DNA of 64,000 bases. Source: Candidatus Eiseniibacteriota bacterium. Lineage in GTDB: Bacteria; Eisenbacteria; RBG-16-71-46. Positions within the stretch are counted from its first letter, which is position 1, and every line of letters starts with the position of its first letter. The notes beneath the pieces are model-generated. The model was given only the letters and a program-made list of their open reading frames with translations, made no database searches and had not been told where the DNA came from. Made by a program: the position numbers and the translations under genes. Below, in pieces: positions 1 through 12,283 of this stretch. The DNA is taken from positions 18,247 through 82,246 of the forward strand of contig JANLWX010000018.1 of assembly GCA_031364845.1 (NCBI GenBank). The letters are read 5' to 3'.

Positions 1-894
1 GAGCACCACGGCACCCACCCACACGTTCACCTTGAAGAACGCGAGGTTCACGTTCTCGGCCCAGCGTTGTTCGAGGAACAACAGCACCCCCGCGACCGCG
101 AGCAGGATGCCGGTTGCGATCTGCGCCGCGACGGCGGCTCCCAAACCCGAGACATCTGCGACGGTCTGCGGAGTCGCGACGCGAAGCACGGCGAGGGCCG
201 CCCCGACCAGGCAAGCGAACGCCGCAAGGTGGAGCACCGCGGACAGCCGCAACGCGCGGTCGCGGCCGAGCCACGCCGCCATCGAATGCACGTGGTGCTC
301 GCGGTCGAACGACTCATCGAGCGTGGCGTAGATGATGTCGAACCCGCTCACCCACAAGAGCGCGAACGCCGCGAGCCACAGCGCGGGAACGATCGCGCCG
401 AGATCCGGATGCGCGGCTGCGAAGCCCGCGAGCGGTGCGAGTGCGAGTGCGACGCCGACTCCGAAGTGGCACAGCGGCGTGAAGCGCTTGAGGTAGGGAT
501 AGAGCGCGAACACCGCGAGCGGCACCGGCGAGACGAGGAGGTACCAGCGGCCGAGCAGAGCACACGCCGCGAGATAAGCGGCGATGCTCACCAGCAGCAG
601 CGTCACCGCTTCTGCGAGTTTCATCGCACCCGCCGGCAGCTCGCGAACCCGAGTGCGCGGATTGAGCGCATCGAGCCGGCGATCGACGAGCCGGTTGAGC
701 GCCATCGCCGCAGTACGCGCCGCGACCGCCGCGACCGCGATCAGCGCCCAGCGGCTCACGCTCATCGCGCGGCCCGGCGCCGAGAAGATGCCGGCGAGAA
801 TCAGCGGCAGCGAGAACAACGTGTGCTCGAAGCGCACGAACGACGCATACGTGCGCATCCGTCCGCGGGCCACCGGGATCGACGCGGTCGTCAT
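1..894 (-). CDS. UbiA-family prenyltransferase (MqnP-like 4-hydroxybenzoate/menaquinone polyprenyltransferase), truncated by window start
   Basis: Not in the ORF track; manual translation from ATG 894 gives MTTASIPVARGRMRTYASFVRFEHTLFSLPLIL...AMALNRLVDRRLDALNPRTRVRELPAG (UbiA NRxxDxxxD motif). ATGA overlap with the upstream gene stop. Confidence 0.9.
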   Translation of the reverse strand, partial: MTTASIPVARGRMRTYASFVRFEHTLFSLPLILAGIFSAPGRAMSVSRWALIAVAAVAARTAAMALNRLVDRRLDALNPRTRVRELPAGAMKLAEAVTLLLVSIAAYLAACALLGRWYLLVSPVPLAVFALYPYLKRFTPLCHFGVGVALALAPLAGFAAAHPDLGAIVPALWLAAFALLWVSGFDIIYATLDESFDREHHVHSMAAWLGRDRALRLSAVLHLAAFACLVGAALAVLRVATPQTVADVSGLGAAVAAQIATGILLAVAGVLLFLEQRWAENVNLAFFKVNVWVGAVVL

Positions 895-2168
895 CGGGCG
901 GCCGGTGCGTTACGGAGCATTGCGAGCACGACGTTGCGCAGCATTTGCGGATACACGCCGCCGCGGCGCGCGTGGCCGTTGATGACGATCGAAGGCACGC
1001 CGAGCAGCCGCATGTCGGTCGCGAGGGCGACGTCCTTGTCGAGCTCCGCCCTGCCCGCTCCGCGTTCGACGCACGCCTGGAACCGCGGCACGTCGAGATG
1101 GAGTTCGCCCAGATGGCGCGTCACGTTAGCCTTGGTGACGTCGGGGTGGGAAAGCGTATGGAACAGATAGTCGTGGTACTCCCAGAATTTCCCCTGCTCT
1201 GCCGCACACTCGCCGACCTCCGCAAGCCAGCATGCATCCACGTGCTGGTCGTGCTCCATCTTGGGATTGCACTGTGAACTCACGGGCGCGTTCAGGAACA
1301 CGACGCGAACCTGGTCGGGCAGCTGGCGGCGCAACTTCTCGATGTGACCGGACAGCGCGCGGCAGTAGTGGCACTGGAAGTCGCTCGCTACCACGATCGT
1401 GACCGGCGCGGTGGCGGGCCCGCGCGACGGCTGGCCCTCGAAGCGGGCCATGTCGATCAGCGGCGGCTGCTCGAGCTGTGCGAGGAACTCGTCGGTCTCC
1501 TCCTGCGCGAGAATCTTCACGTCTTCGAGCGATCGATAGGTCATGAACACTGCCGTGCCGATTCCTGCGAGGACCAGGAACGCCGTCAGGAGCTTCGGAA
1601 CGAGCGGCCCCGGCGAGAGGAACAGGCTGCGCCGGTCGCCCGGAGTCTTCGTGCGGCCATCGATCCACCAGAACAATCCCGCGAGCAATAGATTGATGCC
1701 GTAGGACGCCGCGCAGCCGAGGCACACGGTGCCGATGCGCGCGACCATCACCCACGCGAGGTACGCGTCGAACACCAGCGCCACACACGCCACCAACATT
1801 CCCAGTGAAGCCGCCGCCGCGCGCTCGGCCGGCCGGAACCACAGCGTCGCCAGCGCGAGTCCGCTCATGACGATGTAGAACACGAGGCCCCACAGGGCGA
1901 CCGGGTAGCCGAGCATCGTCGAATGTTCGCTCGCCGCCACCGCGTTGCAGTCGAACGCCGCGCCACCGCTGCACAGCAATCCCTCGGCGAGTCCGCCTTC
2001 GGTGACCGTGATGTATTCGCGGAGCAGGAAGATCGCGATCGCGGCACCGCCGAGCGCGACGATCAGCGCGAGCACGGAGGCGATCGGCGTGCGCGGAGCC
2101 GCGGGAGTTGCGGTGGCGGCAGTGTTCGGAAGTTCTCGGGTCATCGAACGCGTCTCCTGATCATCCAT
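891..2168 (-). CDS. VKOR (vitamin K epoxide reductase) domain fused to a DsbA-like thioredoxin domain
   Basis: TM region with loop cysteines CSGGAAFDC and CLGC; C-terminal SDFQCHYC and GVPS cis-Pro motif. Start at 2168 or 2144. Confidence 0.9.
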   Translation of the reverse strand: MDDQETRSMTRELPNTAATATPAAPRTPIASVLALIVALGGAAIAIFLLREYITVTEGGLAEGLLCSGGAAFDCNAVAASEHSTMLGYPVALWGLVFYIVMSGLALATLWFRPAERAAAASLGMLVACVALVFDAYLAWVMVARIGTVCLGCAASYGINLLLAGLFWWIDGRTKTPGDRRSLFLSPGPLVPKLLTAFLVLAGIGTAVFMTYRSLEDVKILAQEETDEFLAQLEQPPLIDMARFEGQPSRGPATAPVTIVVASDFQCHYCRALSGHIEKLRRQLPDQVRVVFLNAPVSSQCNPKMEHDQHVDACWLAEVGECAAEQGKFWEYHDYLFHTLSHPDVTKANVTRHLGELHLDVPRFQACVERGAGRAELDKDVALATDMRLLGVPSIVINGHARRGGVYPQMLRNVVLAMLRNAPAAR

Positions 2169-2220
2169 GAATCGCGAGTGCGGGCCTGCCGTGCGTGTCT
2201 GAGGCCGCGATCGAAAAGCA

Positions 2221-3018
2221 TCATCGGCGCACACCCCACACCAGCGTCGTCGCGCCGAGGCGATTCACGAGCGGCAGTGATTCCGCCACGGTTTCGAGCA
2301 CACGCCCCACCGGCAGCAACGAATCCGGCAATGTCTTGAACACCCACATGAACTGACGCGCCCCGCGCACTTCGAAGCCCGCGGTGGCGAGGCCCGAGAC
2401 CAGATCATGAGCCGTGATCGGATGATGATACCGATACGGGTGGTAGGTCGAGGAATCGTCCTGAGCTTCGGGATAGCACGAGGACGGCAACATTCGCCGC
2501 AGCGCGGGCCAGCGTGTCGCGAGCACCTTCACCTGCTCGATCGGCGAATGCGCGTTCGGCGTCGAGATCGCGATGGTTCCGCCCGGCTTGATCACGCGGG
2601 CGGCTTCGCGCAGCACCTGCGCGCGATCCGGCCGGAACACGTGCTCCATCATTTCCACCGACACGATCGCGTCGAACGCGCGATCCGGAAACGGCAGCGC
2701 CTTGGCATTGCCCTGGACCAGCGCGAAGCCGCGGTCGTCATTGAAATGGCGCTGCGCCCATTGGAGCTGATCGAGGCCGAGATCGATCCCGGTGATGCGC
2801 GCACCCATCTTCGACGCCCACATGGGCCCGAACGCCCAGCCCGGTCCCAGGTCGAGCACCCGGTCGCCGCGCTCGAATCCGCTGCGTTCGAAAACCTCAC
2901 GAATTCGCCGGACGATCATGTGTCGCTTGGTCGCCGAGGCCAGATACCAGTGTTCGACCAGGTAGGGTAACGATTCGCGATCGCGGACCGTGATCTCGGG
3001 AGGAGCGCCGAGCTTCAT
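2221..3018 (-). CDS. Class I SAM-dependent methyltransferase
   Basis: VLDLGPGWAFG motif I, GIDL, QGNAKALPFPDRAFDAIVS, RVIKPGG. Start MKLGAPP at 3018 overlaps the EamA stop. Confidence 0.88.
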   Translation of the reverse strand: MKLGAPPEITVRDRESLPYLVEHWYLASATKRHMIVRRIREVFERSGFERGDRVLDLGPGWAFGPMWASKMGARITGIDLGLDQLQWAQRHFNDDRGFALVQGNAKALPFPDRAFDAIVSVEMMEHVFRPDRAQVLREAARVIKPGGTIAISTPNAHSPIEQVKVLATRWPALRRMLPSSCYPEAQDDSSTYHPYRYHHPITAHDLVSGLATAGFEVRGARQFMWVFKTLPDSLLPVGRVLETVAESLPLVNRLGATTLVWGVRR

Positions 3019-3983: not shown

Positions 3984-4411
3984 GGACCCCGCACATTACA
4001 ACGCCGCACGCGGGCAGCGCACTTCGCGGCCATGATCGACTGCTTATGTGCGCCGGCCCCGCGATGGATGTCGTGCGTGCTGTTCCAACTCCCCGACTGA
4101 CAAGGTAGCGGTGGTGGAGTTGCTTCGGCCAATCGGCCCCCGATTGCGATCAACCTCCGCGAATCCGGTCCTCCGCTCCTTGCCCGTCGTGGTCGAGATC
4201 ATGTGGATCTCGAAGACTCTCCATCGCAATGAGCGGACCAACCGCGTCGGTCGTCATGGACTCGCGCGAAAGGCCTGCAAACACACGCGCATGTCGGTGT
4301 TCGTGCGGACGAGTCGGGTGTTCGCCGACGGACTGGGTGTCCGTGGGGTTTCCACATCCGTCGCGGCGTTGACACTCGAGACAGAGAAATCACCCCCTGT
4401 GATTTCTCTGC

Positions 4412-4441
4412 TTGACGGAGTGCACGGACGTGCACTAGCAT
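4412..4441 (+). promoter_or_regulatory. Sigma70-like lexA promoter with a palindromic operator in the spacer
   Basis: TTGACG 4412-4417, 18-nt spacer, TAGCAT 4436-4441; perfect palindrome AGTGCAC-GGAC-GTGCACT at 4419-4436. Confidence 0.7.
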
Positions 4442-4494
4442 TCCCGGGTGCCAGGTCCAAGAATGGACCCTCAACGTTTTGAAAGAAGGGATCT

Positions 4495-5097
4495 ATGCGG
4501 AGCGATCGAACGCGCGAGATTTTGAGCTTCATCGAGGACTTCACGCGCGAGCGCGGATATCCGCCAACCATTCGAGAGATCGGCAAGGCGTTTTCGATCG
4601 CGTCGACGAACGGCGTTCGCTTCCACCTTCACAAGCTCGAGAAGCAGGGCATGTTGAAACGGAGCGGAAAGATCTCCCGGGGGATCGAGAGCATGCGCGC
4701 CGTGACGCCGGTGACCGGCGGAATTCCGATTCTCGGTCGCGTGGCGGCAGGTCAGCCAATCTCGGCGGACCAATCGTATGACGGCACACTCGAAATCGAT
4801 GACCTCTTTGGTCGGCCCGGCGAACTGTTCGCATTGCTCGTGAAGGGTGACAGCATGATCGGCGCGGGCATCTACGAGAACGATCACGTCGTCGTGCGGC
4901 ATCAGGAAACGGCGGCGGCTGGCGAAATGGTGGTGGCGCTGATCGAAGACGAAGCGACCGTCAAATATTTCCAGCCCAAGAGTGATCGCGTCGAGCTGGT
5001 CCCAGCGAATCCGAAGTACCAGCCGATCGTCGTCCGATCCGATGAAGAGCTTCGATTGCTGGGAGTTGTTCGAGGAGTGGTTCGCGTCATCAACTGA
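4495..5097 (+). CDS. lexA: SOS transcriptional repressor LexA
   Basis: GYPPTIREIG winged-HTH, GRVAAG(Q)P Ala-Gly cleavage site, VKGDSM catalytic Ser, ATVK catalytic Lys. Confidence 0.97.
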   Translation: MRSDRTREILSFIEDFTRERGYPPTIREIGKAFSIASTNGVRFHLHKLEKQGMLKRSGKISRGIESMRAVTPVTGGIPILGRVAAGQPISADQSYDGTLEIDDLFGRPGELFALLVKGDSMIGAGIYENDHVVVRHQETAAAGEMVVALIEDEATVKYFQPKSDRVELVPANPKYQPIVVRSDEELRLLGVVRGVVRVIN

Positions 5098-5117
5098 CCT
5101 CGATGATGAGGTCCGAG

Positions 5118-5143
5118 AATGGGAGCTCGCGCTCCCATTTTTT
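5118..5143 (+). terminator. Intrinsic terminator after lexA
   Basis: AATGGGAGC-TCGC-GCTCCCATT hairpin followed by a T run. Confidence 0.7.
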
Positions 5144-5155
5144 CGCGGTATTAAC

Positions 5156-5169
5156 TGCACATACGTGCA
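5156..5169. promoter_or_regulatory. Second TGCAC-N4-GTGCA palindrome (candidate LexA operator)
   Basis: TGCAC-ATAC-GTGCA just upstream of the GGGAGG RBS of the TnpA-like gene. Confidence 0.6.
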
Positions 5170-5184
5170 TCGGCAAGGGAGGAT

Positions 5185-5649
5185 GTGATGGTGGACAGCA
5201 GACTGACCCCCGAAGTTACTGAGTCACTCGCAGTGCGATGGGAACCGGTATATCGGAGTCAGCTCCACTACCTCGTCACATGGGGAACGCGGGGTCGGCG
5301 GCCGGTGCTCAAGAATCGTCACGTGCGCTCATTGCAGACGCTCGTCCAGCAACTGTGCGCGGACCGTGGATACGGACTGCTCGAAGTCGCGGCAGGTGAT
5401 GATCACGTGCATGTGCTGGTCGCGATTCGACCTTCGCAGAGCATCGCGAGCGTCGTGCGCGAAATCAAAGGCCGCTCCGCCGCGACACTGCTTACGGATT
5501 TCCCCGAACTCAGAGTGTGGCTGCGCGGAAATCTCGTGTGGGACGAACGCTACTCGGTCGAGACCGTGAGCGGAGTGCGCGTCGATCGAGTGCAGAATCG
5601 GCTGCGCGCTCTGCACGGCCCTCAGGATGAGTTGGCCCGCGCGAGCTGA
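5185..5649 (+). CDS. IS200/IS605 TnpA-like (Y1 HUH) protein lacking the catalytic Tyr; no tnpB adjacent
   Basis: YLVTWGTRGRRPVL, DDHVHVLV (HUH), VREIKGRSA, VWDERYSVETVSG; the expected YIxxQ helix reads RLRAL. Confidence 0.85.
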   Translation: MMVDSRLTPEVTESLAVRWEPVYRSQLHYLVTWGTRGRRPVLKNRHVRSLQTLVQQLCADRGYGLLEVAAGDDHVHVLVAIRPSQSIASVVREIKGRSAATLLTDFPELRVWLRGNLVWDERYSVETVSGVRVDRVQNRLRALHGPQDELARAS

Positions 5650-5784
5650 TTCGCGAGGGTTCGATGATGCCTCGGTACCTCCGGGCTTTCATCGAATGAT
5701 GTTTCACGAACGACACCGCGGCGCTCCTGACGCGTGGCACCCGAAAGGTGCCGCGACGCCGGAATCACGTCTTCGCCTTCGACT

Positions 5785-6702
5785 TCATGGGGCGACGCGG
5801 GGTCGTCGTGAAAGACCGGTTCCATAGGACGCGAGCGCGGCGGCGAGGAGCACGAGCAATGCGCCGAGCCATTGAATCGCCGCCAGGCCTTCGCCGAGGG
5901 CGATCCATGCTGCTACCACGGCGACCACGGGCTCGAGGGTCGCGAGAATGCCGGCTTCAGCGGCAGGCATGCGGCGCAGTCCGGCATAGAAGAGCGCGAA
6001 CGGGATGAGAGCCGAAGTTACCGCGAGAAGCAGGAACACACCCCACATCGAGGCGTCGTAGCCGGCCGCGGCGATGCGCCATGGCGGTGTGACGATCGCC
6101 CACACCAGCCCCGCGACCAGGAACGTGTAGAAGAGGATCGTCTCGGGTGCGTAGCGCGCGAGAATTCGTTTCGAGTAGACGATGTAGAAGGCGAATGTGA
6201 AAGCGGTGCTGAAGCTGATCGCCCAGTCGATCGGACGCGCGCGATCGAGTTGCGCGCCGTTGTTGCCGACCAGGAGCGCCGTGCCGACCATTGCCGCGGC
6301 CAGCGTGATGACAATGCGGCGGGTGAGGCGTGCGCCTCGCAGCAGTTCCCACAGCACGATCAACGAGGGAGCGAGGTACTGGATCAGGATCGCGAGTCCG
6401 ACGCCGAGGACCGAAATCGAATGGTAGTAGCCACCCTGTATCGCGGCGACCCCGAGGACTCCGAGCAGCGCGAACGGTCCCCAGTCTCGCCGGTCGACCA
6501 CGAGCGTTCGCGGGCGACTCGATGCCATCCATACACCGAGGATCAAGGTCGAGAGCACGAGCCGCATCTCGACGATCGTCAGGGGTGGAATGTCGCGTTC
6601 GCGAAACATGAATCGAGCAAGGGTCGCCGAGGCGCCCCAGAACACCGTGGCCCCGAACACCATGAGGCGTCCGCGCGCGTGCTCGGTCGTAGAATCCTTC
6701 AT
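5785..6702 (-). CDS. EamA/DMT family transporter
   Basis: Two EamA repeats, ILATLEPVVAVVAAWIALGE. Start MKDSTT at 6702, just after the upstream gene stop. Confidence 0.9.
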   Translation of the reverse strand: MKDSTTEHARGRLMVFGATVFWGASATLARFMFRERDIPPLTIVEMRLVLSTLILGVWMASSRPRTLVVDRRDWGPFALLGVLGVAAIQGGYYHSISVLGVGLAILIQYLAPSLIVLWELLRGARLTRRIVITLAAAMVGTALLVGNNGAQLDRARPIDWAISFSTAFTFAFYIVYSKRILARYAPETILFYTFLVAGLVWAIVTPPWRIAAAGYDASMWGVFLLLAVTSALIPFALFYAGLRRMPAAEAGILATLEPVVAVVAAWIALGEGLAAIQWLGALLVLLAAALASYGTGLSRRPRVAP

Positions 6703-6706
6703 GAAC

Positions 6707-8398
6707 TCAAAGCAGCCGTCGCCGCTGCAGACGGACGGTACGCACGGCATCGCCGCGGCGCACTCGGAGAACCACGCGGCTCCCGGCCGGTCCTTCGAGA
6801 CGGCGCGAGGCGCCGATGACATCGAGCATGGTCGCGGGCGTCGCGTCGATCGCCACCAGTTCGTCGGCTCTTTCGATCCCGGCTAGTGCCGCCGGAGATC
6901 CGGCGGCAACGCCGACGATGCTCAGGGCAGTGCCGCGCCGTTCGAGCTGCAGGCCGACGTGTGTGTATTCGTTCGGGCGTTCGTCCACTGTGTGCGGGAT
7001 CGATTCCAACCACAGCACCTGATGGGGATAGTCGATCACGACTCGGAACCGCCGCAGGAACGAATAGCCCAGCAGGCCGTGCACCGGCTCGCCGACGTCG
7101 GCAGAGAGTGCGGATGCGAGCGGGCTCTCGATGATCGCCGCATCCATATCGCGCGTCGATACGCCGGCGGAGTCCGTGAGGATCTCGATCTTGGGCAACC
7201 GTGCGATCCGCGCCTCCGCCGAACCCACGAGCGTGGGGGCGGTCAGGCCACGCAACGATGGCCAGCCATCGAACTGCGGAGCTATCTCGGCGAGCGAGGG
7301 TCCGAACAAGGCGGTCTTGGTCGCGCCGGTGTCGACGATGAGCGTCAGCGTGTCGCTCATCGATGCGATGTTGGGATTGGCCACGCGCGCGGCAACCAGG
7401 ATCTTGTCATCGCCGCGAAGTCGGAAGGGAACCGCGCGAGCGCCGCCATGCAGCGCATCACCTAGAGCCGACCGCGAAGCTTCGACGCGCGATTGCCGGT
7501 GTGCCAGTGAGCCATCGCCACTTCGAATGTGGGATTCACTGGCAACGCGATCGACAGGCTGCGAGGTTGCGGAGTTCGAACCATCGTCCGTTGAATCGTT
7601 GACGGGAATGAGGCCGAGTTCGTCTCGGCGATAGTCGATCACCAACGCGTAGGCCGTGAGCGGATGCGCACCCAGCAGGCCGAACACAGGCCGGTCGGTG
7701 ACCTGCCGGATGATGCTCCCGTCAATCGTGAGAACCGGAGACACTTGATCGAACTGAAGGCCACCGATCTCGAGCCGGGGCAACGGGCGATCGGAGATTC
7801 CGATTGCCGCCGGCGCCGCGCCGTCCATTCCACTGCCATTGGGAATCTTCGCGTCGCTATTTTTGATCCCGATCTCGCGAGCGAACGACGCGTCCAGGGC
7901 AACGTATCCGGCACCGCTGTCCAACACGAACAACCCGGTCGTGTCACGACCGTCCGATCTCCGGACCGTGGCGCGGAGCATGATGATTCCTTCCATGTTC
8001 TCGATGGGCACGATCGTCGCGCTGGATCTCCATTGCGCGTTCTGGGCAATAGCGTTGCGCCGTTTCGCCGCGGAGCGTCGAGCTGTCTCCGCATGACTGC
8101 GATTTCGTGGCGTGGAGGCAGATCCCGGCGCGGCCTTTGATCCCTCGGCAGAGTGCGCGCCCTGAGGACTCACGGGTGCGTTCTGCGTCGCCGGATGAGT
8201 GCCAGCCCCTGCGCGCGCTGTGGCGTCGAGCCCGGGGCCTGAGAAGAGGAGGAACAACGCCCCGGACACCGCGACGGTCCAGTGCAGATCTCGAATCCGG
8301 ACCGTGGAACTAGCCCCGGGTGCGAAGGAGATCGCCACCCATCTCGACGGCTTCGGAGCCGTTCTCGAGCATGGTGCACCGGCCGGTAAAGTGAACAC
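6707..8398 (-). CDS. Secreted retropepsin-like aspartyl protease (two domains) with C-terminal PDZ; true start probably ~8270-8300
   Basis: FVLDSGA and LIVDTGA catalytic motifs, GLLG motifs, VAAGSPAALAGI...DELVAID PDZ, hydrophobic N-terminal segment. Confidence 0.85.
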   Translation of the reverse strand: MFTLPAGAPCSRTAPKPSRWVAISFAPGASSTVRIRDLHWTVAVSGALFLLFSGPGLDATARAGAGTHPATQNAPVSPQGAHSAEGSKAAPGSASTPRNRSHAETARRSAAKRRNAIAQNAQWRSSATIVPIENMEGIIMLRATVRRSDGRDTTGLFVLDSGAGYVALDASFAREIGIKNSDAKIPNGSGMDGAAPAAIGISDRPLPRLEIGGLQFDQVSPVLTIDGSIIRQVTDRPVFGLLGAHPLTAYALVIDYRRDELGLIPVNDSTDDGSNSATSQPVDRVASESHIRSGDGSLAHRQSRVEASRSALGDALHGGARAVPFRLRGDDKILVAARVANPNIASMSDTLTLIVDTGATKTALFGPSLAEIAPQFDGWPSLRGLTAPTLVGSAEARIARLPKIEILTDSAGVSTRDMDAAIIESPLASALSADVGEPVHGLLGYSFLRRFRVVIDYPHQVLWLESIPHTVDERPNEYTHVGLQLERRGTALSIVGVAAGSPAALAGIERADELVAIDATPATMLDVIGASRRLEGPAGSRVVLRVRRGDAVRTVRLQRRRLL

Positions 8399-10636: not shown

Positions 10637-12283
10637 CTAGCTCTTACGTTTGAAGATCGCAACCGCAGTGTGCTCGTCGCCCACGGTGAGCGTTCGATCA
10701 AGATCCCACGCAAGGTTCCACGCAGAGTCTTCACCGAGCTCTTCACTGCGGCCGCTGCCCTTCCACAGAAACGCCGAACCATCCTTCTGGACAAGAGCTT
10801 CCGCAAGTTCAAGTGTCGGGGCAAGCTTCATGGTCGCGCGCGAGGTGAAACCTTCGATATCCCGGGCGCCTTCGCGCTCTTCCACGAACGCTTCGAGTCG
10901 CCCGTGATAGACCTCGAGATGTGGCATTTCAAGCTCTTGAATCGCCTTCCGCATGAACAGTGTCTTCGGTCGGCGGGACTCAACCAGGGTCCAGTGCCCA
11001 CCAACTCCGAGAATGGCGAGCGGAATCGCCGGAAAACCCGCCCCTGAGCCGAAGTCCAGCCAGCGCGTCGCTCCCGACGCCTTGAGTTCGTGGGCGCACT
11101 CCACCGACTCTCGAATGTGCCGCGTCACGATTCGCGCTTCATCGTTGCGTGAGATCAGGTTCGAAACGCTTCGGTTCCACTCGATCGCGAGCTGGGTGAA
11201 CTTCTTGAGTCGCGCAATCGTGGGCTCGACATCCGCACCGCTCTTCGCGATGTGAGGGATCAGGTCTTCCCACGGCTGCCGAGCAAGGATGTTGGGGACC
11301 GGCCCGATCCGTTCGAGACTGCGCCGAACTCGTGGACCTTGAACCCGGTCACGCACATAACCACCTGAGGGACGGCTCACCGCCCGGGCGCCATGAGCGG
11401 TCGGCGACTTGCGACGGGGACCGGAAGCCGGCGTCGAGGCACCGCCCGACGCAGGGCGAACGTCACGGCGCTGGCCGGGCTTGGTCCGACTGGAGAGCCG
11501 CGGCGACGGCGTGCCCTGCGCACGAGGCCCCCGATCAGTCGCGGGCCTCGCGTCACGCCCCCACGATCGAGCCCGGCGCTGGCCGCCCTCGCGACGCGTT
11601 TCACCAGGGCCGGGCTTTGAATCATCCGTCCGCCACGGTCCACCGAGACGCGGTTGACCGGCGCGATGGGAAGCGGGACGAGCGTTGGAAGTGCCTTCGC
11701 TGCTTGGCTTTCGGTCGGAACGCCACAGTGGTTTCCGGCGCGCATCGGGTTCTCTTCGAGCACCGCGCCGGGGGTCACGCGACAGTTCGGCACCCGATCC
11801 CGGCGTCTCGCTCCCGCCACGCTGGGCCGGTTCTGCCGGACGACGGGGACCCGAAGATTCCGGACCGCTTGCGCGTCCGGATTCGGAGCGTCCCGGGCGG
11901 CCTCGATCGCCTCCTGCTCCACGTCCCGCGAAACCGCCCCGCGAACCTTCGCGCGAAGCTCCTTCGCGAACGGGGCGCCCTTCGCGGCCAGATCCGCCTT
12001 CGCGGCGGGGTCCGCCTTCGCGAGCGGGTCGGCCTTCGCCGCCGGGCCTGCCTTCGCGAGCCGGTCGCCCTTCGCGTACACGTCCGCCTTCGCCATCCGC
12101 TCGACCTTCACGGGCGGGGCGGCCTTCGCCAACCGGCCGAGCGGTGGGTCGACTGAAGGTGTCTCTCGAGCGCGCAGGACGATCGGAAGTGGTGCCGGTT
12201 CCAGCATCGCGCCGAGGTCCTCGCGAATCGGAGCGCGGTCGCTGCGGGCGTGACGTCGGGCGACGGTTCTCGGGTGGGGTCAT
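10637..12283 (-). CDS. rsmG: 16S rRNA m7G527 methyltransferase RsmG (GidB) with a long low-complexity N-terminal extension
   Basis: C-terminal ~210 aa: EWNRSVSNLIS, RHIRES, LDFGSGAGFPAIPLA, LVESRRPK, FTSRA; position between mnmG and parA. Confidence 0.9.
   Translation of the reverse strand: MTPPENRRPTSRPQRPRSDSRGPRRDAGTGTTSDRPARSRDTFSRPTARPVGEGRPAREGRADGEGGRVREGRPAREGRPGGEGRPAREGGPRREGGSGREGRPVREGASREGSRGGFAGRGAGGDRGRPGRSESGRASGPESSGPRRPAEPAQRGGSETPGSGAELSRDPRRGARREPDARRKPLWRSDRKPSSEGTSNARPASHRAGQPRLGGPWRTDDSKPGPGETRREGGQRRARSWGRDARPATDRGPRAQGTPSPRLSSRTKPGQRRDVRPASGGASTPASGPRRKSPTAHGARAVSRPSGGYVRDRVQGPRVRRSLERIGPVPNILARQPWEDLIPHIAKSGADVEPTIARLKKFTQLAIEWNRSVSNLISRNDEARIVTRHIRESVECAHELKASGATRWLDFGSGAGFPAIPLAILGVGGHWTLVESRRPKTLFMRKAIQELEMPHLEVYHGRLEAFVEEREGARDIEGFTSRATMKLAPTLELAEALVQKDGSAFLWKGSGRSEELGEDSAWNLAWDLDRTLTVGDEHTAVAIFKRKS

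Follow-up and report, generated by a model that had tools for sequence, protein, structure and literature searches.

A TnpA homologue without the catalytic tyrosine is encoded next to lexA and is probably a domesticated, SOS-linked protein in an order of Candidatus Eisenbacteria

Introduction

The active site of IS608 TnpA, a transposase of the IS200/IS605 group, consists of a tyrosine, a glutamine and two histidines, as described in PMC5934647. Exchange of the tyrosine for phenylalanine (Y132F) alone is reported to inactivate ISDra2 TnpA (PMC3479197), which agrees with the premise of an initial annotation of the DNA studied here that Y1 transposases need this residue. The same source reports that in TnpAREP, a domesticated Y1 transposase, helix C inserts into the minor groove of a hairpin. 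IS608 TnpA was further reported to localise to stalled replication forks, to bind fork-like DNA and to contact DnaN (PMC5027513). A survey of the superfamily dropped members lacking the motifs as non-functional, by which the set was reduced from 924 to 722 sequences (PMC6006769). Since this survey removed motif-less members, and databases label the gene described below a transposase, similar cases may be overlooked.

Here, we analysed tnpA*, a gene located directly downstream of lexA in a genome of Ca. Eisenbacteria. The window, i.e. the whole stretch of DNA under analysis, comprises 64,000 nucleotides. The source genome belongs to f1, one of three families (f1, f2 and f3) of a single order of uncultured bacteria. 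Our results suggest that tnpA* likely encodes a host damage-response protein, which is predicted to bind structured DNA rather than to cut it.

Results

The tnpA* open reading frame (5185-5649, forward strand) is intact and, as initially annotated, comprises 154 aa when counted from GTG 5185. Alternative start codons are ATG 5188 and GTG 5191, and because most orthologues start at the codon equivalent to GTG 5191, the protein probably has a length of 152-153 aa. The gene is preceded by the ribosome-binding site AAGGGAGGA (5175-5183, forward strand) that the initial annotation had proposed, and its GGAGG is kept in relatives. The protein matches Pfam Y1_Tnp (PF01797) with 83.7 bits (cut-off 23) and the NCBIfam IS200/IS605 transposase profile NF033573 with 84.7 (cut-off 55), and it carries the motifs H74/H76, KGRS and W119..Y123..TV, so that its assignment to the Y1 TnpA fold was confirmed. 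Structure prediction, which had been recommended, led to the same family: the best Foldseek match of the AlphaFold2 model (pLDDT 80.9) was ISDra2 TnpA (E 8e-11, TM 0.66, 28% identity), and an ESM Atlas search returned Y1_Tnp clusters only.

The alignment with ISDra2 TnpA (2xm3) is ungapped over residues 23-144. It pairs the catalytic Y132, which is Phe in the inactive mutant structure 2xo6, with R139 of tnpA* (codon CGG, 5599-5601), Q136 with L143 and the YH-motif His with L30. The claimed losses (Tyr to Arg139, Gln to Leu143, YH to YL) were thereby borne out, with H74 and H76 kept. Among 87 ordinary TnpAs, the catalytic column holds Tyr in 73. The initial annotation had named Y123 as a tyrosine that might support cleavage instead. 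This candidate was rejected because Y123 aligns with a tyrosine of β5 that is found in ordinary TnpAs in addition to the catalytic residue (77/87). No other Tyr was found on helix D in columns 132-147 of a 121-sequence alignment, and a Tyr pattern test gave three matches, all of them N-terminal mismatches. As stated earlier, no tnpB adjoins the gene, and all matches to PF07282 in the genome were below the cut-off. The pI was 8-11 in eight sampled family members. The C-terminus reads L/F/W-A-x-A-S in most f1 members (LAxAS in the window) and resembles the tmRNA tag of the same genome, which ends in LAA; speculatively, it may act as a ClpXP-type degradation tag.

A search with the tnpA* protein gave 778 matches, of which the best 120, with 64-95% identity, were examined. 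Arg139, His74, His76, Tyr123 and His144 are invariant (121/121, query plus the best 120 of 778), and D73 is present in 117 of these 121 f1-type sequences. LexA is encoded directly upstream of tnpA* in 38/38 loci from GTDB contigs as well as in the 30 best genome loci, a set that overlaps the 38 and has R139 in 30/30. The lexA-adjacent orthologues with conserved loss of the tyrosine that had been proposed as a check thus exist. In the 38 loci, tnpA* is mostly followed by eamA, bactofilin and parB-parA; most of these loci are labelled Ca. Eisenbacteria or unclassified, and four have other labels. The copy number, also proposed as a check, is one: tnpA* is the sole PF01797 match in its 97%-complete genome. 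Because the region adjoins parAB and gidA, it probably lies near the replication origin. The locus is flanked by a VKOR-DsbA fusion (891-2234, reverse strand) and a double aspartyl-protease-PDZ protein (6707-8398, reverse strand). After gidA, a long open reading frame (10637-12283, reverse strand) begins with about 330 low-complexity Arg/Pro/Gly-rich residues; its C-terminal part is presumably rsmG-like, and the start call may be over-long.

The median dN/dS was 0.30 for tnpA* compared to 0.32 for lexA (Nei-Gojobori, 666 pairs of 37 sequences, with the frameshifted rows L031 and L037 left out; dS is underestimated at a GC3 near 0.85), and the four closest tnpA* pairs had values of 0.03-0.15. 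The neutral evolution that had been named as a possible refutation is not supported, as the ratio is below 1 and matches that of lexA. Among 25 loci with all four genes, patristic distances of tnpA* correlated with those of lexA, parA and parB at 0.78-0.85, and those of the three host genes among themselves at 0.76-0.88; of 22 gene-tree splits, few were shared in any pair of genes, with 7-9 between tnpA* and host genes and a similar 9-11 among host genes. Broken copies were observed as well. At locus L037 (same DNA as G162), tnpA* is frameshifted and the box described below is absent. The metagenome-assembled genome G096 has three lexA-tnpA* loci, two of which (L102 and L103, on contigs C7 and C6) are frameshifted in both genes; these extra loci probably reflect assembly or long-read error or a strain mixture. 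Phage records held only ordinary or partial TnpAs (best 35% identity) as relatives, and viral contigs gave only two weak partial matches. Overall, comparative sequence analysis lends good support to tnpA* being single-copy, vertically inherited and under purifying selection.

We surveyed 206 genomes of the phylum, 102 in the order of the source genome and 104 outside. TnpA* was found in 94/102 genomes of the order (81/89 in f1, 10/10 in f2, 3/3 in f3). Of the eight genomes without it, seven likewise gave no match to lexA, and the remaining one, G085, has a lexA that runs off the contig, so that no clean loss was seen. The initial annotation would have been contradicted by relatives lacking the gene or keeping the tyrosine in many IS-like copies; the frequency of 94/102 and the single copy speak against both. 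Outside the order, seven genomes gave weak matches. The six that were fetched (L096-L101, not G001) are ordinary TnpAs or fragments, none of which adjoins lexA, and the tyrosine is present wherever the C-terminus is reached; a phylum-wide range was rejected on these grounds. At 20 outgroup lexA loci, two of which end within about 400 bases of lexA, a broad profile HMM with filters off found no tnpA* at E<1. In a tree with 45 ordinary TnpAs, a branch with 99/99 support separates these from the 20 tnpA* rows, and the sampled f1 rows and the f3 rows each form a supported group (the bootstrap had not settled, at 0.951, and support refers to branch values). Judged by this survey, the family is order-wide, not phylum-wide.

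The lexA gene (4495-5097, forward strand) encodes 200 aa and is the single lexA of the genome (TIGR00498, 180 bits, cut-off 111). Its promoter (4412-4441, forward strand; -35 TTGACG at 4412, -10 TAGCAT at 4436-4441, 18-nt spacer) was the sole promoter-like site in 4300-5850. The initial annotation had pointed to a palindrome shared by lexA and tnpA*. We found this putative LexA (SOS) box, TGCAC-N4-GTGCA, between the -35 and -10 elements of lexA (4421-4434) and again ahead of tnpA* (5156-5169), and the repetition proved to be conserved: TG[AC]AC-N4-GT[GT]CA occurs in 39/39 lexA promoters and 38/39 tnpA* upstream regions of f1 (one base relaxed at one position), with TTGAC 8-9 nt ahead of the lexA box in 39/39 loci, and has no further copy within the roughly 406 kb that these loci span. 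By these counts, its placement at lexA and tnpA* is far beyond chance. The lexA box is also present in 11/11 f2/f3 and 12/20 outgroup lexA loci (at most one mismatch), and the second box is recognisable in f2/f3 loci, with mismatches in some. Genome-wide, 14 exact matches were seen compared to 17.8 expected, i.e. there is no enrichment, and several of the 14 fall inside genes. In the source genome, an exact box precedes a DUF6504-like/dinB pair and a radical-SAM gene, a box with one mismatch precedes a second DUF6504-dinB pair and one with two mismatches precedes recA. Because it lies ahead of lexA, tnpA* and dinB, the palindrome very likely represents the Ca. Eisenbacteria SOS box; its sequence is similar to boxes of the GAAC-N4-GTTC type. 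With a conserved box and the same motif before SOS genes, tnpA* has the sequence hallmarks of an SOS regulon member.

Further observations concern the other boxed genes. The radical-SAM gene behind an exact box (C97:461, L040) resembles, we assume, spore photoproduct lyase-like proteins. Another exact box lies upstream of a 162-aa open reading frame, which we take to be mraZ, before mraW (C190:12044, L042) and hints at SOS control of the cell-division cluster. Two RecA matches (C87:24580 and C206:6161-6784) are both located at contig ends and may represent two genes or a split assembly.

A promoter scan of 4300-5850 found no consensus promoter for tnpA*; transcription from a weak -10 inside the box or by read-through of the upstream hairpin is possible. 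The initial annotation had placed tnpA* just after the lexA terminator. Its position behind lexA and behind a hairpin with a T run (5115-5145, forward strand; stem GGGAG..CTCCC) was confirmed, and the hairpin is conserved in sequence (32/38 loci), with a distance of 24 nt between CTCCC and the second box in 24/38 loci. A terminator scanner made no call at the hairpin (5115-5142), so that the term terminator rests on the predicted folding (-18.9 kcal/mol over 5110-5150) and the T run that follows. The 5' leader of lexA contains a further conserved stem (4448-4469, forward strand; GTGCCRGGTYC..GRACC, with compensatory GGTTC..GAACC variants), which is a candidate ligand and is given as a lead only; it was found in 33/39 f1, 6/11 f2/f3 and 0/12 boxed outgroup loci. 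Rfam gave no match to E=1 over 4200-5900. Genome-wide, the terminator-stem pattern occurred at the tnpA* locus only and the leader pattern at this locus and in one loose match. Between tnpA* and the convergent eamA lies a GC-rich 3' hairpin (5659-5697, folding at -21.0). Relatives commonly have a long stem there, but without sequence conservation. It was thus rejected as an IS right end, and the hairpin that had been suggested as a ligand (5660-5696) is for the same reason a poor candidate.

The gene order in the sister families gives an indication of the origin of tnpA*. In all 11 f2/f3 loci, lexA is directly upstream of tnpA* and dinB follows within about 1 kb downstream. A small gene between tnpA* and dinB was extracted in 7/9 loci tried and matched DUF6504 in 3/3 tested, two over the cut-off, which gives the order lexA-tnpA*-DUF6504-dinB; the tnpA* stop codon overlaps the DUF6504 frame in 3/3 loci inspected. 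Outgroups have the order lexA-(DUF6504)-dinB, with a DUF6504 profile match just after lexA in 7/20 loci and dinB-like frames in many. In f1, dinB was found in 0/39 tnpA* loci, and the source genome has its DUF6504-dinB pairs on two other contigs (C49:6308-7762 and C227:43562-45230), each behind a box. The simplest reading of these arrangements is apparently a single insertion of a TnpA gene between lexA and DUF6504-dinB of an ancestral SOS operon, followed by domestication; f2 and f3 would have retained the resulting order, and f1 would have moved DUF6504-dinB away and kept tnpA*. As tnpA* has remained beside lexA in the absence of the downstream genes, selection acts on tnpA* itself. Operons with an SOS box in which a small DUF6504 (PF20114) gene immediately precedes dinB are found throughout the phylum (L134-L153, L084-L094), which suggests that DUF6504 is a DinB accessory or split subunit.

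The HUH motif is broken in all eight f2 and three f3 sequences. In f2, the motif has the sequence D-R-V-H or T/G-Q-I/V-R/K, and the Tyr column holds Arg or Lys; in f3, the protein ends at or just after W119, by which β5 and helix D are lost. H144 is missing from the f2/f3 orthologues, as are one or both histidines of the HUH motif. As sister families lost HUH and one of them the whole Tyr helix, catalysis is, on this comparison, dispensable in the family. Other positions are kept across f1-f3: V41, L42, R92, K/R95, G96, P107, L109, R110 and W119 in 48/48 sequences and E93 in 46/48. R92-G96 correspond to helix C. R92, E93 and R110 vary among the 87 ordinary TnpAs, as does the family-specific ELRVWLRGNLVW stretch. 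Acidic residues invariant in f1 are E20, E108, D120, E121 and E126. β5 builds the TnpA dimer. Since f3 is without β5 and helix D, the dimer, and perhaps the function, would differ across the order, and the very divergent f3 protein may do something else. P73 and T115, named in PMC3479197 as dimer determinants of IS608 TnpA, map to P83 and T127, both of which f1 and f2 retain and f3 has lost.

Discussion

The above results make it very probable that tnpA* is a domesticated, non-canonical protein linked to the SOS response. Single copy, vertical inheritance, purifying selection and the conserved box thus give good support to what the initial annotation had proposed, i.e. domestication under LexA-type control with loss of canonical catalysis. 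Concerning its activity, we favour a damage-induced, non-cleaving binder of hairpin or fork DNA that acts via helix C, and we infer this with a probability of about one half. RecA-driven cleavage of LexA would free both boxes, upon which tnpA* would be transcribed from a weak promoter of its own or by read-through of a leaky terminator. The basic protein would use helix C (R92, K95, G96) together with a T-R-G-R patch, for which residue-level hairpin contacts are taken from TnpAREP, to bind stem-loops or ss/ds junctions where forks have stalled and would help damage tolerance alongside DinB. Several points do not fit well: the ligand could instead be RNA or protein, the acidic residues invariant in f1 misfit a pure DNA-binding surface, broken copies exist (L037 and the two extra loci of G096), the box is not enriched genome-wide and tnpA* is without a consensus promoter.

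A somewhat unlikely alternative is that tnpA* is a feedback regulator that binds RNA or DNA stem-loops, namely the lexA leader stem or its own upstream hairpin, and tunes lexA translation, stability or read-through. The compensatory variants of the leader stem and its absence from boxed outgroup loci point in this direction, as do the conserved sequence and spacing of the intergenic stem and the persistence of tnpA* with lexA after DUF6504-dinB had left. However, shared ancestry alone explains the co-occurrence, 5/11 f2/f3 loci are without the leader stem, 5' stems and terminators serve ordinary functions as well, and Rfam gave no match. A prediction of a LexA-tnpA* complex scored 0.00 and carries no weight either way. 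It is unlikely that the TnpA fold is a mere scaffold and the protein an accessory factor that acts by protein-protein contacts with DinB/DUF6504, the beta clamp, RecA or LexA. Its place as first gene of tnpA*-DUF6504-dinB in f2/f3, with overlapping frames, would agree with such a role, as would the invariant R92, E93 and R110 and the ELRVWLRGNLVW stretch, all variable in ordinary TnpAs, and the contact of IS608 TnpA with DnaN (PMC5027513). Against it, f1 lost the dinB linkage (0/39 loci) while tnpA* became more conserved, and the surface that is conserved best is that of the known hairpin-reading helix.

The remaining alternatives concern transposition and nuclease activity. The initial annotation had suggested a dominant-negative brake on IS200/IS605 elements during SOS, which would poison TnpA dimers or occupy IS ends. 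Damage raises the level of ssDNA, the IS200/IS605 substrate, and the dimer residues P83 and T127 are kept in f1 and f2. Yet the source genome has no further Y1_Tnp, extra IS200 TnpA matches were found in only 4/102 genomes of the order and 9/104 outside (metagenome-assembled genomes under-assemble IS, and kin genomes are not independent), f3 is without β5, and, with an identity of about 30% to any active TnpA, tnpA* is unlikely to form heterodimers broadly. Given the scarcity of targets, we consider such a brake very unlikely. That the f1 protein is still a nuclease with altered chemistry, using a metal at H74/H76/H144 and water or a His as nucleophile, is highly improbable. HUH relaxases with a His nucleophile exist. 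The three histidines are invariant and D73 nearly so among the query and the best 120 of 778 matches, and TnpAREP is reported to use three His ligands (PMC3479197), but ISDra2 already has a His (H137) at the position of H144, f2/f3 orthologues have neither H144 nor the full pair of HUH histidines, and Y132F alone inactivates ISDra2 TnpA. That tnpA* is an IS remnant in decay, or else an active IS, is finally refuted by conservation, range, fixed locus and dN/dS and has next to no probability. The gene does pass the NCBIfam IS200/IS605 cut-off and is labelled transposase in databases, and one frameshifted, box-less copy exists (L037); against this stand the single copy, the selection like that on lexA, and the lack of tnpB, of conserved ends and of any close phage or viral relative.

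Beyond the binder of hairpin or fork DNA that we favour, the history of the locus leads to a broader proposal. TnpA* would be the first host protein derived from a catalytically dead Y1 transposase, captured in an ancestral lexA-DUF6504-dinB operon, and would now belong to the core of the SOS response, where it would recognise hairpins or forks (or the leader RNA of lexA). Living intermediates would mark its path, with loss first of Tyr, then of HUH and then of the whole catalytic helix. We consider this reasonably likely. If true, a dead TnpA under selection as strong as that on lexA across a bacterial order would represent a new way in which a transposase becomes a host factor for repair or regulation, and tnpA* would add a new component to the SOS response, of a size suited to in vitro tests. 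A likely SOS box for Ca. Eisenbacteria and a link between DUF6504 and dinB operons are further outcomes of the analysis. No published description of the family was found in a full-text search judged by titles and starts of abstracts, with subscription papers outside its coverage, and full-text searching found no paper linking Eisenbacteria with LexA or the SOS response.

Compared to known systems, the locus is related to lexA-dinB translesion cassettes, in which an SOS-boxed lexA forms an operon with a Y-family polymerase gene, as in the outgroups and in f2/f3; lexA-imuABC is another lexA-linked translesion cassette. None with a TnpA-fold member is described in the literature searched. With IS200/IS605 TnpA (ISDra2, 2xm3/2xma; IS608, 2a6m/2vju; IS200, 2f4f), tnpA* shares the fold, the HUH of f1, the KG motif, W119 and P83/T127. 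It differs in Tyr to Arg, Gln to Leu and YH to YL, in having neither IS ends nor tnpB, in its single, fixed, vertically inherited locus with an SOS box, and in sister families that lost HUH (f2, f3) and helix D (f3). With neither a catalytic Tyr nor a mobile-element context, it falls outside the active IS200/IS605 transposases. TnpAREP/RAYT (4er8) is likewise a host-retained, single-locus TnpA relative. However, RAYT keeps Tyr and HUH, cuts DNA and is flanked by REPs, whereas tnpA* has no Tyr, and the hairpin motifs at its flanks do not form genomic repeats. It scores 32.8 against the RAYT profile NF047646 (cut-off 80) and is closer to class-1 TnpA; with this score, without Tyr and without dispersed flanking motifs, it is not a RAYT. 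In the parts of the literature available to us, domesticated TnpA (RAYT) keeps its chemistry, and dead IS200/IS605 proteins derive from TnpB. TldR, a nuclease-dead TnpB exapted as a regulator (PMC13622181), resembles tnpA* as a catalysis-dead IS200/IS605 protein kept by the host, but according to this source TldR derives from TnpB and is RNA-guided, whereas tnpA* derives from TnpA.
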